A stretch of 64,000 nt of DNA from positions 1 through 64,000 of the forward strand of contig JAXHVD010000013.1 of assembly GCA_034189385.1 (NCBI GenBank), in the 5' to 3' direction. The stretch is from Thermodesulfobacteriota bacterium (GTDB lineage Bacteria > Desulfobacterota > Desulfobacteria > Desulfobacterales > C00003060). Made by a program: the position numbers. Each line of letters begins with the position of its first letter. Within the stretch, counting starts at the first letter, position 1. Below are positions 41,452-50,400 of this stretch, one piece after another.

Positions 41452-44400
41452 TTAAGTGTTCCACACCATCAATCTTGACGTCGGTGCCTCCATATTTGCT
41501 GAAAAGCACGCGATCGTTCTTCTTGACGTCAAGGGGGATACGCTTTCCCTCGTCGTTGTATTTCCCGGGGCCAACGGCCACGACTTTTCCCTCCTGCGGT
41601 TTCTCCTTTGCAGTGTCCGGAATGATAATGCCGCCTCCAGTCTTTTCTTCCTTTTCGATCCTTGTAACCAGTATCCTGTCATTCAACGGTCTTAGTTTCA
41701 TTCTACCATCTCCCTGCTTCCGTCCTTACATGCACTGCATAGCTTCTTTGGCCAGCAGGGGGGCTGAAGCCCCCTGCTGTCGATAGGTCTTGCTTTGCCA
41801 GGCACCACATCAAGTTGCCTTGACCTCGATCTTCTTGGTTGACGTCTCTTTGATCTTGGGCAAGGTGACGTTCAGGACGCCGTCCTTGTAGCTTGCTTTC
41901 ACCTTGTTCCCGTCGACTTCAACAGGCAGTCTGATGGACCTGGCAAAAGCGCCATGGCTCCGCTCCACCCGGTGGAAGTTCTCGCCCTTCTCCTGTTGTT
42001 CCTTTTTCCGCTCTCCACGGATGCTCAGAACGTTCCCGCTTACGGCCACATCAAGGTCCTTTGGGTCTATCCCAGGCAGTTCAGCCTTGACGATGACCTC
42101 TTTGGCGGTTTCAGATACGTCAACAGAGGGGATCCAGTGGCCGTCGGTCGGTCGAAACCTGACGGGCCAGTCTTCGAAGAACCGGTCAAAAAGCCTGTCC
42201 ATATCCTTTCTCAAGCCGGTCAGTTCTTGTCGCCCACGCCAAGGTACTAAGCTGGAGATTTCCATAATATCACCTCCCAATCTTCTGTTTCACGGTTGGG
42301 GCCGCTGATTCTCAACGAATCGCAAACCCATTCTTGCATCGGATGTATGGCAAAGTGCGTGCCATCATTCCAATATATTGATAATATTGATATTGTCCCA
42401 GTTGCTGAAATCCGTACAGGAACTGACGGTTCCGATTTAAGGCCCGGTGGCCACATCACGAAGGAGTGGGCCAGCGTATGTGCTCCAATCAACTGGAATA
42501 ACGAAGGATACACGAATGTGAACTGTAGATTCCGCTTTTTGCCACATAGGAATTGACAGTTCTTATATGCGGCTGGTCAAGGGGCAATGGGCGGCAAGAA
42601 CTGAGCTACAACGGAGGCATCATCTAGCAAGAGAGATCGAATCCAAGCCCCGGTTTGGTGCTTGGAAAAAGGGTCCCGTCACGTAGCGTTACCGCACCGG
42701 CAGAAGGGTCGTTCACCAGGCCCAGGTGGCCGTCCAGGTCAGCGTAGACCACATTGGGACGGGCCAATGCAAAGTGCAGGCCTGCGCATATGGCCAAGGC
42801 GGCCTCGTCTACGCATCCCACCATCACTTCCAAACCTGCTGAGCGGGCAACCGCATTGACTTGGAGGGCTTCGGAGATGCCTCCCACCTTCATGAGTTTC
42901 ACATTTACCATGTCAGCCAATTCTTGTTGTGCAATCCGAAAGGCGTCCCGGAGAGTCATGAGACTTTCATCTGCCATGACCGGAATAGGAACCACGCTCG
43001 TAACGCGACCGAGCAGGTCTGGTTGGCCTTTGGGCGTAGGCTGCTCAATAAGCTCCAGATGGGCTTGACGCGTGCTTTCAACAAACCTGAAACATTGTTC
43101 TACTGTGAACCCTTGATTGGCATCAAAACGCAACGCTACCTCATTGCCCATGGCTTCTCTGACCTTGAGCACGCGTTCAATGTCAGCATCCACATCACGG
43201 CCCCCCTTCAGCTTTAGGCTTCTGAATCCTCTTGCCGCAAACTCCCGTGCCCGCTCTACTGTTTCTGTCACAGACAAGATGCCGATGGTGACGCTGGTTT
43301 CTATACGATTACGGAATCCGCCCAGGAGCTTCCAGACGGGGAGATTAGCCGCCTTTCCAAGGAGATCATAGAGCGCCATGTCTACTGCGGCCAGGGCGGA
43401 GGATTGAGCGGTTATGCTTCGTTTCTGTCGCTCCAAAATCATGGCCACCCGAAGGGGGTCTGAGCCCTTTATAGATGGAGCGACACAGTCCTCCAATACC
43501 TGAATGACGCTCTCCACGGTCTCGCCTGTGACAGTTTCATCCGGAGCTGCACAGCCATAGCCGGAAAGCCCGTTGGCTGTTTCTATTCGAAGAAAAACGT
43601 TTTTCACAGCTTCAACGGTCTGATAAGCAATCGTGTAAGGTTCAGAGAGCCGCATGGAGACCGGCCAGACATCTAGCTTAGTGATTTTCATAGCCCTAAT
43701 ATCGCCTCTGGTAGAGTTCCTCTAATGTCATGCTCTTGAGATCCTCCACAAATTCTACCAAGTTCATTATCATCCTCTCCCACATGCGCCTCCCTTTCTC
43801 TGCAGTGGCCCTTGTGGGGTCGCCCAGGACACCGGAAGGAGAAATCCTGGCGGTGTGGGTATACCATGTCACGCTCCTTTTAGAGGTGAAATTGAGATAC
43901 GTGCTTGAGAATCTAGGGACGAACTTCTTTGCGGCTTCAAGTCTTACGACCTCAGGGCGAACCGCCAAGGTGGTGCTGGTCTCGATCTCCCCGGCATGGA
44001 CATCGTTCGGGGTTTCCGCCATGGCGTAGATGTCGGGATCGCTCGTCTCACCGGTGTCAACGCAGGTGAAAATCTGGGCATCTCGGTTGATCATCTGTGC
44101 GGCAAAATGCAGGGCTGGACCGTTTCCTCCATGTCCGTTGATGATGACCAGTTTTCTGGCGCCGTGACGGGCAATGCTCATACCTATGTCATAGACGAGC
44201 CGTGACAGCGTCTCCGGATTCACGCTGATGGTGCCACTGAAGTCTTCGTGGTGGTAGGAAACACCATATGGGATTAAGGGAAGAACAATAGGCCTCGGCT
44301 CGCTGCACGCCTTTGCCACCTCATGGGCCAGATACTCGGCATCAAAGGCATCGGCATCTAGAGGCAGGTGAGGGCCGTGTTGTTCAATGGCACCCACAGG

Positions 44401-47400: not shown

Positions 47401-50400
47401 GATCCCCATCAATAGCATGCCAATTGATGAGAGGTTCGTTTACGCGGGTTTCCCGAATTTGCTCCGGCCTGAGGTCCTCACACAGGAGGGTGTTCTTCAT
47501 ATAAGCCCTCACTATGGGATTCTTACCGTGAGAAGAGCCGGCGAACATGCGGGGCATCCGCGAGGTTTTCCCCCGGCGATAAAGACTGAGGAATCCTTTG
47601 TAGATACCTGCCAGGGTGCTGCCGTTAGAGACGGGCACGGCAACCACCCCGGGGGCATCACGGAGCTCATCGTAGATTTCGTAAGCAATTTCGCCGTAAG
47701 CCTTTGATTGAAGCGCCGTGTTATCACCTCCGGGGTTTGCGTCGTAGAGTTCGTCGGATTCAGCTCTTTCTCGAGAAGCTATGACTGCATTTTCATAGTC
47801 TCCTGGCACCCGGACGATCTCTGCGCCATAGGCAACCATCTCTTGCACGCGTTTCGTGCTGTAGGCCTCTGGAATAAAGATAGTGCAACGCAAACTTGCC
47901 ATGGAGCTAGCCAGCGCTACCGCTACGCCGTAGTTGCCACAGGTAGCTACAGTGATGGCATCGAACCCACGCCGTAAGGCATCCATGGCCTGGACGAAGG
48001 CGATGCGGTCTTTCTGCGTTCCCGTGGGGTTACCTCCTTCGAACTTAAGGTAGATTTGTCTCAAGCCCACTTCACGCTCAATATTTCGAGCCCTTGAAAG
48101 GGTTGTGTCGCCTACCTCTGAATCGACAATGTCCTCATAGGCCTCAAGGCGATCATTCAAAGGTTGCTTTTTGTCTGAAGCCAGCTTTTTCTGCCTTTCC
48201 AACTCGGGGGCAATGATGGGCACCTGAGAGGTTGCCCCATCTACTAGAGAAAGCCGTGAATCATTCATCTCGAATTCCGGCATGGGAGGAGACTCCATTT
48301 CCTTCATAGCAGAGGGCATGTCCGTCTGGACATGCCCTCAACCCAGAATTTGTCCGATTCGTTTTATGACAAGATGTTAGGCCGCCTTCACCTGGCTTAC
48401 CTCGGCGAACCCGTTGGTTTGCTCTTGGCCTCTTTGTTCCCCACGCCTTCAGCTCTTGCCAGCTTGTCACATCTCTCTATCAGGCTCTCTATCTGTCCTG
48501 TCACCGCTTTTAGCCCTTCTAACAACCCTTGAAGGTCTCTTTCTATCTTTTTCATCTCTGCCCTTCTTCTCCTTATTAGGCCCTCACCGAGCCTTTCCAT
48601 AGTCTATCTAAAACCGGCCAGTTTGTTTATCAACCGCCCAAAGGCCAACCTTAGGGTCGTCTCGCTTCATCTCTGCCCTCACTGGCATGTTCGTCCCAAC
48701 GACAAAATGTGCATGCAGCCATCTCCTCACTAGTCAAAGATGACGTGCCCCTTACCGGCAGCGGCAATCCTGAGCAAGTCGTCCGTTTTCCTGACAGCCA
48801 TATTTCGAAAGGTCACTGTAGCACCAGATCGTTTGGCCGCAGTTGCAATCTTCGCCAGCTCCTCCGTCGTTCTCCGGCCTGCTTCCATGGCAAAACCACC
48901 GCCCGCGCTGGCAATTTTAATCAGCTCCTCCGTTTTCTTCATGCCTAAACCCATAGCCTTTTCCTCCCCCGGATTGATAGTGAGCCGCCCTTGGCTCAGC
49001 GTTTTAAGGTCCCAAGAGGATCCTCCGTGCTCTTGAGCTGAGAGCCCTTTTCCCGCAGGTCGGTTGAGGTTACAACTCAAAGAAATCATAGTTTTCTTTG
49101 CGGCGGCTGCGCCTCCTCTTGGTAATATCCCTCCAATCATTACTAGTCTGGATTCCTTTCGCCTTCTTCTTGCGACACTCTGGGCACCGCTTTGGCACAC
49201 CAAAACCTTTTGCCATGAAACGTTCCCGCTCCTGACCTGAGAAAACAAACTCAGTCCCGCATTGAACACAATTTAACGTCAGTGCTTCCATCATATACCT
49301 GCCTCGTTACGGAGTAGTTCTTTCGGGGCGACATGAACAACTCGTCGTTGCCTCCAGCGATCAATGGGTTCATCTACAGCATAGTAAAGGATCAGGGATG
49401 CTACTAAAACGGTTGCTAGCAGGGGGAAAAGAGGGTACTCCTCCAAATATTCATCAAAGAATGCCACTATGAGAAAATGAACCATGTAGAAGGGGTATGA
49501 AATGTTTCCGAGGAATCTGTCCAGTCGGTTGTCCTTTGCAGCGTTGAAAATAAAGGGGATGCATACGGAGGTTGTCAGGACCAGAATCGTGAAGGCATAT
49601 TCTTCGTTTATGCTTTCAAATGAAAGGAGCGCGCCCAGAAGTATTACCCATGAAATGAGTCCTGCATGTCTGCCAAGGTGACCTTTGATCCTCAAGAAAA
49701 GGATATAGCCAAAATAACCAAGAAGAAAGAGGCATAACTCAGCAGGAAGGCATCTTCGCAACAACAGCTCGCATTCGGGGCCTTTCGAGACAAGATAGAG
49801 GCGCAATGCAAGGCTCAGCAAAAAGATACCCCCTACCCAGTACAATCGGCGGCGCAGAATAAGGGGGGCTAAGAAGTAAAAGCACAGTTCCAGGGAAAGG
49901 GACCAGGCTTGTGGGACCAAGATATAAGACCAGGCCTTGGCTGAAGCCCCCCCGTCCGGAGCCCAATAGAAAGAGAAACTGGCAGTGTCTATACCTAGAA
50001 GAAACAGTATTTCCTGCCCCAGCACTGCGATGTTTGCCCAGGCATAGGCTCCTGCCATGACAGGCCCGTGCGAAAAGACGCTTTTAAATCTGTCCATGCG
50101 TGTAAAAGCCGCCACATCGAAGAAAAAAAGAGCTGCAAAGGATAGGACAAGGACAAGCAGATAGCTTGGAAAGAGTCGGAACAGCCTGTTTGTGTAGAAC
50201 AACATGGCATCGGTGTTGTACTTCTCACTGAGAATGAAAGACATGTAGAAACCAGATATGATGAAAAAGACTTGCACTGCCACGTGTCCCGGCAAAAGGC
50301 TAATCTCTAAGGGAGTGGCGTGTGATATCAAGACCGCACAGGCAAGAAACAAACGAATCGATCCCATGGAACTGGTCCATTCGTGAGACTCCCCAGGCTT

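Follow-up and report, generated by a model that had tools for sequence, protein, structure and literature searches.

MurL is described as activating an acyl-L-Glu, with ATP going to AMP, and epimerizing it in one direction only (PMC8788868). QueC, QatC and Cap9 are built on the PF06508 scaffold, and a survey of the QueC family gives YxQxHxxE, VPxRN and YPDC as the signature motifs of QueC (PMC13329287). MurL, "creatinin-", DUF1611, threonine synthase, epimerase and DUF6395 all go unmentioned in the main text of that survey. Among dipeptide epimerases, the specificity sites of 3RIT lie at positions 24, 51 and 296 (PMC3965090), and an Ala-Glu epimerase binds the substrate carboxylate through Arg24 (bioRxiv 2022.05.01.490185). 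The DgcN-DgcA D-glutamate pathway (NF041892, NF042940; EC 2.3.1.312, 5.1.1.25) combines a DUF1611 protein, an enolase-family epimerase and an amidohydrolase, as does the operon described below, but has no counterparts of two of its enzymes, T and P. DgcN reportedly carries out an acetyl-CoA-dependent acetylation of D-Glu. Our literature search, whose reach into subscription journals is limited, recovered no paper on this operon.

Layout of the operon and its second copy

The window analysed here comprises the first 64,000 nucleotides of a contig (JAXHVD010000013.1) from a Thermodesulfobacteriota bacterium. As the initial annotation had proposed, it carries four tightly linked genes on the minus strand in the order T - N - P::C - E, with all four ORFs present as follows:

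47189..48283, minus strand: T, predicted fold-type II PLP enzyme, ThrC-like (alternative start at 48319)
46113..47192, minus strand: N, DUF1611 protein with a Rossmann-like and a P-loop domain, distant DgcN homolog
43696..46101, minus strand: P::C fusion ORF, 801 aa
44512..46101, minus strand: P, N-terminal ~530 aa of P::C, predicted PP-loop ATP pyrophosphatase of the MurL/QueC/QatC type, carrying a four-Cys zinc-site motif
45526..45543, minus strand: PP-loop motif SGGKDS of P, residues 187-192
44932..44991, minus strand: predicted zinc site of P, C371-x12-C384-x2-C387-x2-C390
43696..44466, minus strand: C, metallo-amidohydrolase domain of the creatininase family in fusion with P, with the peptidase MftE as closest NCBIfam model
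42624..43691, minus strand: E, predicted dipeptide / N-acyl-amino-acid epimerase of the enolase superfamily, its side-chain pocket acidic

T and N overlap in an ATGA, while 11 nt separate N from P::C and 4 nt separate P::C from E. The start of T is uncertain, with in-frame ATGs at 48319, 48307, 48298, 48283 and 48268; a GGAG lies 9 nt upstream of the candidate at 48283, and residues of T are numbered below from the ATG at 48319. The window contains no Rfam matches, promoter and terminator counts are at chance level (6 versus 4.7 and 8 versus 8.7, respectively), and no sigma-54 box precedes T in this copy. Genes for groEL, hsp20 and methylglyoxal synthase flank it. The operon had also been reported as present twice in the genome: a second copy does exist on contig C26, at 83-85% amino acid identity to the window copy, but rather than a true duplication it is probably a binning effect, with the copy belonging to a co-binned relative; the depths of the contigs do not tell the two readings apart.

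Affinities of the individual enzymes

The proposal that the P half is a QueC/QatC/MurL-like adenylating domain is borne out by its motifs, by fold searches and by a profile match, and P is an enzyme family outside every Pfam and NCBIfam model applied. Against PF06508 it scores 13.7 bits (cut-off 22), and the only NCBIfam match on this half of the 801-aa protein is again MurL (E 2.7e-4), at 19.6 bits against the cut-off of 700 in NF041275. The likeness to MurL, earlier judged weak, proves stronger than claimed: against MurL-like proteins encoded next to MurD, in a profile of only two sequences that themselves fall under the NCBIfam cut-off, P aligns across 315 columns, those of the N-terminal beta domain among them (hhalign probability 97.7, E 2.4e-12), compared with 200 columns for the genome's own QueC, and MurL is the closest named ESM Atlas family (0.95). 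The N-terminal beta domain, the PP-loop, an FSxLRPLSE stretch and the four-Cys site of the two proteins all align, albeit at ~20% identity. MurL is encoded together with MurD2 in murein synthesis; the recurring neighbors of 160 loci include no Mur ligase of any kind, and P is also found in records of Thermoplasmatota and Thermococcus, which are not known to have murein.

The predicted model of P (pLDDT 91) once more retrieves QatC, Cap9 and QueC as top Foldseek matches (E 5e-6 to 1e-4), and VIA places QueC and Cap9 on top with Z of 13.1 (rmsd 2.6, 178 aligned) and 12.9 (rmsd 3.0, 189 aligned). Over the full length Foldseek ranks the amide ligase QatC first, and the PDB matches listed include no MurL, so that P may be either an epimerase or a ligase. 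Run against the PDB sequences, the P profile returned nothing under E 0.5, and a quick tree, with long branches and one row containing a stop, did not group P with MurL over QueC. P has the PP-loop ATP pyrophosphatase fold of QueC, QatC and Cap9 and a zinc motif like theirs: the SGGxDS loop of QueC is present as SGGKDS, and four Cys are present with a first spacing of x12, as against x8 in the QueC motif C(x)8CxxCxxC and x19 in QatC, most of whose motifs are missing. SGGKDS and CGRCEKC had been described as invariant; among 44 diverse rows these exact strings recur in 28 and 26, respectively, whereas GGK[DE]S and SCH-x(8-14)-PCGxCxKC, along with the four zinc-site Cys, are kept in all 44. A regular-expression search of residues 1-530 detected none of the three QueC signature motifs, and a canonical QueC is encoded elsewhere in the genome beside a QueE-like gene; P was rejected as a housekeeping QueC. 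Neither que genes nor Qat or type IV CBASS defence genes recur among the neighbors of P. Some JGI labels read QueC.

T contains a PALP domain (E 3e-54), and the structures nearest to its model are ThrC (Z 35). It passes NCBIfam PRK06381 (435.7 bits, cut-off 266), in which "threonine synthase" is an annotation name only and on which we found no paper, and fails the thrC model TIGR00260 (102.4 bits, cut-off 167.1). The fold and the PLP lysine are common to T, ThrC and PRK06381, but two phosphate-site positions differ in T: in a gapped pairwise alignment the Ser and Arg of the substrate-phosphate site of ThrC correspond to P196 and Q204, and Ser/Arg is never the majority there across 104 rows. 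The PLP lysine K103 and Cys127 are invariant in these 104 rows, and Cys127, from its position, could allow racemization. The genome has its own ThrC on contig C1, which passes TIGR00260 (185.9 bits); a housekeeping ThrC role was rejected for T, which is probably not a threonine synthase.

N matches PF07755 (223.5 bits versus 25, E 2e-66) and PF17396 (79.8 versus 22.6, E 2e-22) as well as the PDB entries 2G0T (E 3e-39), 2OBN (E 6e-34) and 7XRJ (E 1e-32), but falls far under the DgcN model NF041892 (159.9 against 480); E likewise scores 168.6 against 400 for the DgcA model NF042940. The best PDB matches of E are the dipeptide epimerases 3JVA, 3RIT and 1JPM (YkfB), with which it has the catalytic Lys and metal ligands in common; the GCMDE motif is shared with 3RIT. 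Its residues K160/K162, D190, E216, D241 and K265 are invariant across 51 near and 21 distant rows. The DxD is kept in 50/51 near and 21/21 distant rows, and also in 10/10 DgcA proteins, so that it does not discriminate a dipeptide from an N-acyl substrate. Within the pocket, near rows have E24 (46/51), D51 (49/51) and D295 (50/51), the distant ones having Asn for Asp at 295 (21/21). Where these dipeptide epimerases have Arg at 24, the operon proteins have Glu (Gln in the window copy), and the residues listed at 23 and 24 for the 72 E proteins include no Arg. All ten DgcA proteins over the cut-off have the loop Arg, Tyr and Val at the specificity positions. The acidic pocket of E and its want of the DgcA loop Arg thus point, by sequence comparison, to a basic residue rather than glutamate as the substrate side chain. 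3RIT reportedly prefers cationic dipeptides. Given these residues and the two low scores, "DgcN/DgcA-type" was an overreaching label for the operon, and a true DgcN-DgcA pair was rejected.

That the fusion partner of P belongs to the creatininase family was confirmed by PF02633 at residues 548-785 (248.5 bits versus 31.3, E 8e-74). The residues E573, H575, D584, H657 and E707 of C, aligned to the metal and catalytic residues of creatininase, are invariant (65/65). C falls under both the MftE model TIGR03964 (161.2 versus 172) and the creatininase model TIGR04448 (113.7 versus 235); mycofactocin genes are lacking here, and C has NGHGGN in place of the NGHYEN of creatininase. Creatinine use was rejected. 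The fusion of C to P is optional.

A T-N-P core with an exchangeable arm

The operon is common to many sediment bacteria and archaea and to many bacterial phyla. We found 434 matching GTDB stretches, with the gene order kept, where contigs allow, in the 80 closest of them; of 8,000 candidates scored in the search for P relatives, 3,060 reached E<=0.001. Earlier sampling had given 2 of 200 other genomes of the phylum, both with all four genes; here 11/400 match, some without the full set. That the operon is conserved stands, but the distant loci, which are largely archaeal-looking, identify T-N-P rather than the four-gene set as the conserved unit. In these, P has N beside it in 56/57 and T in 42/46, C occurs in 0/57, and E is found in 23/48, being absent from 25/48 that have room for it; every E-bearing distant locus (24/24) contains an M14 peptidase. 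In near loci E goes together with C (71/75 and 62/65). T-N-P is therefore the core, and E with a hydrolase of either the creatininase or the M14 type is an exchangeable arm.

Flanking genes vary across most loci. A RimI-like GNAT follows P in 41/57 distant loci, and the largest neighbor cluster beyond the operon genes is a sigma-54 regulator (17/80). Chaperone neighbors among the 80 loci include groEL (7) and Hsp20 (6), and sigma-54 boxes precede T in 6/64 loci against 0/64 controls, which together hint at a stress role. No solute-uptake family is widely recurrent around the 80 loci. One locus (L188) has a KamA-like aminomutase, a Ddl-like ligase, a P relative and a GNAT in succession, without T or N; no second KamA context was seen in 61 relatives or in 21 genomes of the order of G343. 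With no counterpart seen in L082 or L083, the ornithine-racemase-like gene that L081 has 5.6 kb from N was dropped. P was not found in plasmid or phage collections, and the window sequence is present in marine, sediment and wetland DNA runs, with no RNA runs listed.

Candidate pathways

Observed are the linkage of the genes, the folds of their products, the intactness of the catalytic motifs and the swapping of creatininase-type C for M14. All of the chemistry is inferred; the earlier proposal of an undescribed amino-acid or peptide pathway is supported by the present analysis. We tentatively favor, as quite possible if short of probable, a model in which T-N-P adenylates a carboxylate at the expense of ATP and so builds a basic D-amino acid in N-acylated or peptide-linked form, which E and C recycle. 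T-N-P would be a cytoplasmic biosynthetic core. T, the weakest step, would apply PLP chemistry (racemization or beta-elimination/replacement) to a non-phosphorylated amino acid, and N, by likeness to DgcN, may acylate the amino group from an acyl-CoA. P would convert ATP to AMP and PPi, adenylating the N-acyl or peptidyl amino acid at its alpha-carboxylate, and, by analogy with MurL, could invert it one way from L to D. The product would resist proteases: an N-acyl- or peptidyl-D-amino acid whose basic side chain is of the kind found in Lys, Orn, Arg or diaminobutyrate, and which would most plausibly serve as a solute for stress protection or storage. In the recycling arm E would return the terminal residue to L, whereupon C or M14 would cleave the amide and free the amino acid. 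P and E acting on one substrate form a futile cycle unless regulated or temporally apart.

No such cycle arises if P instead works as an amide ligase or amidase, joining an adenylated N-acyl amino acid from T and N to ammonia or a second amino acid, with E and the hydrolase as degradative enzymes. The product would then be a solute of the acylated-dipeptide or amide kind, following the logic of N-acetylglutaminylglutamine amide. The D-residue could then come from T by Cys127 racemization, and QueC, Cap9 and QatC, which among solved structures come closest to P, all form amides from adenylated carboxylates (PMC13329287). We nevertheless regard this as rather unlikely, for the MurL profile match covers an N-terminal domain absent from QueC, and the Ddl-like ligase beside P in L188 would already fill the bond-forming role there. 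Catabolic salvage of basic D-amino acids to the L form in DgcN-DgcA style, where N acylates, E racemizes, C deacylates and T and P are auxiliary, parallels the acylate-racemize-deacylate logic given in PMC11747546 and PMC12363236, and fits the environmental DNA runs noted above; it is quite unlikely, as it leaves the ATP-using P without explanation, the constant partners of N are P and T instead of E and C, E is missing from over half of the distant loci with room, and no conserved uptake system accompanies the genes.

Protein modification or damage repair, with P ligating a small acid to a protein N-terminus in the manner of QatC or Cap9, or the set clearing damaged basic residues from proteolysis, would accord with QatC as top Foldseek match, the RimI-like GNAT, and groEL, hsp20 and methylglyoxal synthase beside the window copy. 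Yet neither a small conserved target ORF nor a defence gene recurs, the flanks are variable, and P differs from QatC in motifs and Cys spacing, making this distinctly unlikely. Modification of a nucleobase, tRNA or cofactor by a QueC-like P and an ArfB- or MftE-like C is highly improbable: the VIA scores (Z 13) and the JGI labels would suit it, but the signature motifs are absent, the genome has its canonical QueC, neighbors of the que, folE or tRNA-enzyme kind are never recurrent, and the other four enzymes use amino acids.

Returning to the favored T-N-P model, its fullest form, doubtful but conceivable, would make T-N-P the source of a new stress solute, widespread in bacteria and archaea but hitherto undetected: a basic amino acid of D configuration in acyl or peptidyl form. 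P would then be the first ATP-driven epimerase of the MurL type to act outside murein, T a fold-type II enzyme of a new, Cys-base kind hidden under the PRK06381 label, and E with its exchangeable hydrolase a dedicated turnover arm. The cultured carriers Desulfosarcina variabilis (operon) and Thermococcus celer (P) make the operon testable. For surveys of D-glutamate metabolism, a solved pathway would be a caution against taking every DUF1611 gene for dgcN. It would also assign functions to PRK06381, to much of DUF1611 in the form of one large branch, and to those MurL/QueC-like enzymes that act outside murein and queuosine, and it may show how D-amino-acid conjugates arise by biosynthesis in sediments.

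The operon and its genomic setting

All four ORFs of the operon reported in the initial annotation are found at that place, on the minus strand and in the order T, N, P::C, E:

47189-48283, minus strand: T, a ThrC-like PLP enzyme (start uncertain)
46113-47192, minus strand: N, a DUF1611 protein
43696-46101, minus strand: P::C, an 801-aa fusion of a PP-loop half (P) and a creatininase-family half (C)
42624-43691, minus strand: E, of the dipeptide-epimerase family (enolase superfamily)

T and N share an ATGA overlap, the gaps from N to P::C and from P::C to E are 11 and 4 nt, and the GC content of the region (0.53-0.55) is near the window value. 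Pfam recognizes PALP in T, both DUF1611 domains in N, creatininase at residues 548-785 of the fusion and the MR/MLE domains in E, and it finds nothing above cut-off within residues 1-530 of the fusion. Among the NCBIfam models PRK06381 alone is over threshold for an operon protein (436 vs 266), with DgcN (160 vs 480), DgcA (169 vs 400), MftE (161 vs 172), the creatininase model (114 vs 235) and MurL (19.6 vs 700) below their cut-offs.

A stress cluster (hsp20, groEL, methylglyoxal synthase; 38907-42280) lies immediately downstream, and a row of consecutive minus-strand genes at 34910-37531, encoding a glucosamine-6-phosphate deaminase-like protein, a PIG-L deacetylase and a GT4 glycosyltransferase, could yield a glycoside solute. 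About 450 nt upstream of T a short ORF (48730-48900, minus) encodes an internally repeated helical motif without Pfam or NCBIfam match. Sigma-54 boxes (at most 1 mismatch, within 400 nt upstream of T) occur at 6/64 loci as against 0/64 intragenic controls; the window copy has none upstream of T. Perfect consensus boxes at 42350-42364 and 51695-51709 (minus) lie upstream of hsp20 and of ORF 51219-51602, respectively, the latter encoding an acidic, apparently secreted protein of 127 aa; a sigma-54 activator gene is at 51924-53345. The sequencing runs listed as containing the window sequence include no RNA run. No widely recurring solute-uptake family was found around the operon loci, and the ion transporters CorA and MgtE are each nearby in 8/80.

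The operon had been described as present twice. A second copy, with 83-85% amino acid identity to that of the window, does exist on contig C26 of the same genome, but duplication within one genome is doubtful and co-binning is favoured. C26 (29.5 kb) aligns over 77% of its length to the window's contig at 85% nucleotide identity, the aligned part taking in groEL, an acyltransferase, dksA and a sigma-54 regulator. Other small contigs are covered by larger ones at 80-85% (C35 to 93%, C43 80%, C61 100%, C52 96%, C59 89%); the duplicate contigs of this bin, namely C26, C32, C35, C43, C52, C59, C61 and C47, are copies of larger ones at 80-96% identity and are likely to be co-binned relatives or strain variants. 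Bin contamination is 4.19%, and this genome alone among 12 matching phylum genomes has two full copies. Speaking against co-binning, a second variant in run X1 equals C26 at 38/39 checked sites, among the rows listed (40 of 557), and contig depths are about 25-39 vs 43-44; in runs X2 and X3 both variant types seem present. These variants and depths fit two co-occurring relatives and an old duplication alike. We regard a co-binned relative as the probable source of the C26 copy.

Core and exchangeable arm

Relatives of P are encoded on 434 stretches in a GTDB scan, the record titles of the best 80 naming Deltaproteobacteria/Desulfobacteria, Acidobacteria, Planctomycetota, Zixibacteria, Gemmatimonadota, Aminicenantes, Ignavibacteria, Clostridia and others. 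Among these 80, which as the closest matches are biased, and counting loci with enough flank alone, N precedes P in 68/69 and T in 66/67, C follows in 71/75 and E in 62/65; the order T-N-P-C-E holds without exception, and C is fused to P in 74/74 loci having it. Within the phylum 11 of 400 evenly drawn other genomes match, in a sample that may overlap with those loci: five have all five parts, two lack C, two are cut by contig ends, one shows a different context and one is a weak MurL-like match. Since T is present in just 2/24 same-genus genomes, the cassette is accessory. Two further phyla have matches in 17/167 and 14/301 genomes. Nine of the 17, picked for short P frames, have C as a separate gene (5), absent (3) or cut (1), so the fusion is optional; seven of the 14 were fetched, with T-N-P-C in 7/7 and E in 4/7. 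A 1,762-aa 'eukprot' record (P0348), a single chain that combines the domains of T, N, C and E, is most likely a bacterial contaminant merged by the gene caller.

A profile search with P recovered 592 representatives at E<=0.001, and the distant members (25-45% identity) include named records from Thermoplasmatota, Methylomirabilales and Thermococcus. A search with 14 distant proteins gave at least 540 metagenome matches. In the 80 best of them, whose contigs are termed archaeal-looking because proteasome and thermosome genes, among others, lie nearby, N adjoins P in 56/57 loci and T in 42/46, a RimI-like GNAT occurs in 41/57, E in 23/48 and C in 0/57, and an M14-like peptidase is present in 24/24 loci with E. 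These counts indicate that T-N-P is the constant unit and that the epimerase and an amide hydrolase form an arm in which the hydrolase is exchanged. N-P is the tightest pair; in one relative (P0125) the two are fused into one protein. A single representative (P0124) joins P to a methyltransferase domain. In another genome of the phylum (locus L188:2-3717, G343:C89) a P relative of 30% identity sits in a tight operon of KamA-like aminomutase, Ddl-like ATP-grasp, P and GNAT genes, without T or N; no second KamA-context P locus was found.

Residues and predicted activities

The motifs SGGKDS and CGRCEKC of P, earlier called invariant, occur in these exact forms in 28/44 and 26/44 alignment rows; it is the looser GGK[DE]S and SCH-x(8-14)-PCGxCxKC that are kept in 44/44. 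The PP-loop is kept in 30/32 rows of a P alignment (A2) and lost in a few distant relatives. Proteins with a degraded loop (P0154, P0163, P0188, P0190, P0228, P0130 and P0136), some still fused to C, may be paralogues that have lost activity or serve in regulation, or may stem from errors in the sequence.

The structure model of P (pLDDT 91) matches QatC (E 4.6e-6, 479 columns), Cap9 and QueC in Foldseek, and in VIA Cap9 (Z 13.1, rmsd 2.6, 178 aligned) and QueC (Z 12.9, rmsd 3.0, 189 aligned), the next match being at 9.5. P has none of QueC's own catalytic motifs, as defined in the available text of PMC13329287, and a canonical QueC is encoded separately in the genome. The nearest named family in the ESM Atlas is the MurL/DUF6395 clusters (0.95, 208 shared features). 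Two MurL-like proteins encoded beside MurD-like genes align with the P profile along 315 columns (prob 97.7), which stretch from the N-terminal beta domain as far as the Cys site; the genome's QueC aligns with it along 200 columns (prob 94.2). Foldseek, VIA, the Atlas and the MurL profile alignment thus bear out a QueC/MurL-like adenylating domain. According to PMC8788868 and PMC5808125, MurL inverts an acyl-L-Glu in one direction, at the cost of one ATP and with release of AMP; given this chemistry and the likeness to MurL, P very likely adenylates a carboxylate. Further MurL-like proteins (L172, L173, L189, P0256) have no adjoining MurD in the stretch seen; there are additional uncharacterised branches to the MurL superfamily.

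The top PDB matches of E are dipeptide epimerases, among which 3RIT prefers Lys/Arg dipeptides, and its catalytic residues are all invariant. The available texts give R24, E51 and D296 as the specificity residues of 3RIT (PMC3965090) and have Arg24 of an Ala-Glu epimerase bind the substrate carboxylate (bioRxiv 2022.05.01.490185). Operon E has Glu at position 24 in 46/51 near and 21/21 distant rows (the window copy has Gln there and the C26 copy Glu), Asp at 51 in 49/51 and 21/21, and at 295 Asp in 50/51 near and Asn in 21/21 distant rows, whereas in the control, 10 of 11 over-cut-off DgcA proteins, 10/10 have an Arg in the loop, with Tyr at position 51 and Val at position 295. The pocket residues thus point to a substrate of E that is not glutamate and that probably ends in a basic residue. 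The DxD motif is kept in 10/10 over-cut-off DgcA proteins and so cannot tell a dipeptide from an N-acyl substrate. The initial reading of N and E as DgcN and DgcA is not upheld, both being under the cut-offs and the pocket of E being unlike that of 10/10 DgcA proteins.

N is nearer to PDB 2G0T than to 7XRJ, which we take to be the DgcN structure. The nearest structures of T are ThrC, and a separate ThrC, over the TIGR00260 cut-off, is encoded in the genome; P196 and Q204 of T align to a Ser and an Arg of ThrC, presumably phosphate-site positions, and the invariant Cys127 (104/104 rows) is putatively at the loop position of serine racemase Ser84. In C, five metal/catalytic residues are kept in 65/65 rows. 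In the available texts Ser84 is the re-face base (PMC6424897) and DgcN is a D-Glu N-acetyltransferase (PMC11747546, PMC12363236, PMC10845958).

A candidate pathway

We tentatively propose a scheme whose chemical steps are all predictions: T would supply or isomerise an amino acid, N would acylate it, and P would adenylate and invert the product to give a basic amino acid of D configuration that bears an acyl or peptidyl group; E with C or M14 might recycle this compound. An adenylated carboxylate could also be joined to an amine, with P as an amide ligase, and this we hold to be somewhat less likely. It is unlikely that the operon serves D-amino-acid salvage and slightly less likely still that it acts in protein modification or repair, while nucleobase or cofactor chemistry appears very improbable. 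Under the proposed scheme the operon would work in parts like MurL and in parts like the Dgc route, and it is a member of neither. We found no published description of it in the open-access literature, subscription papers and supplements being outside that scope. That its genes form one undescribed amino-acid pathway, much as initially suggested, is well supported.
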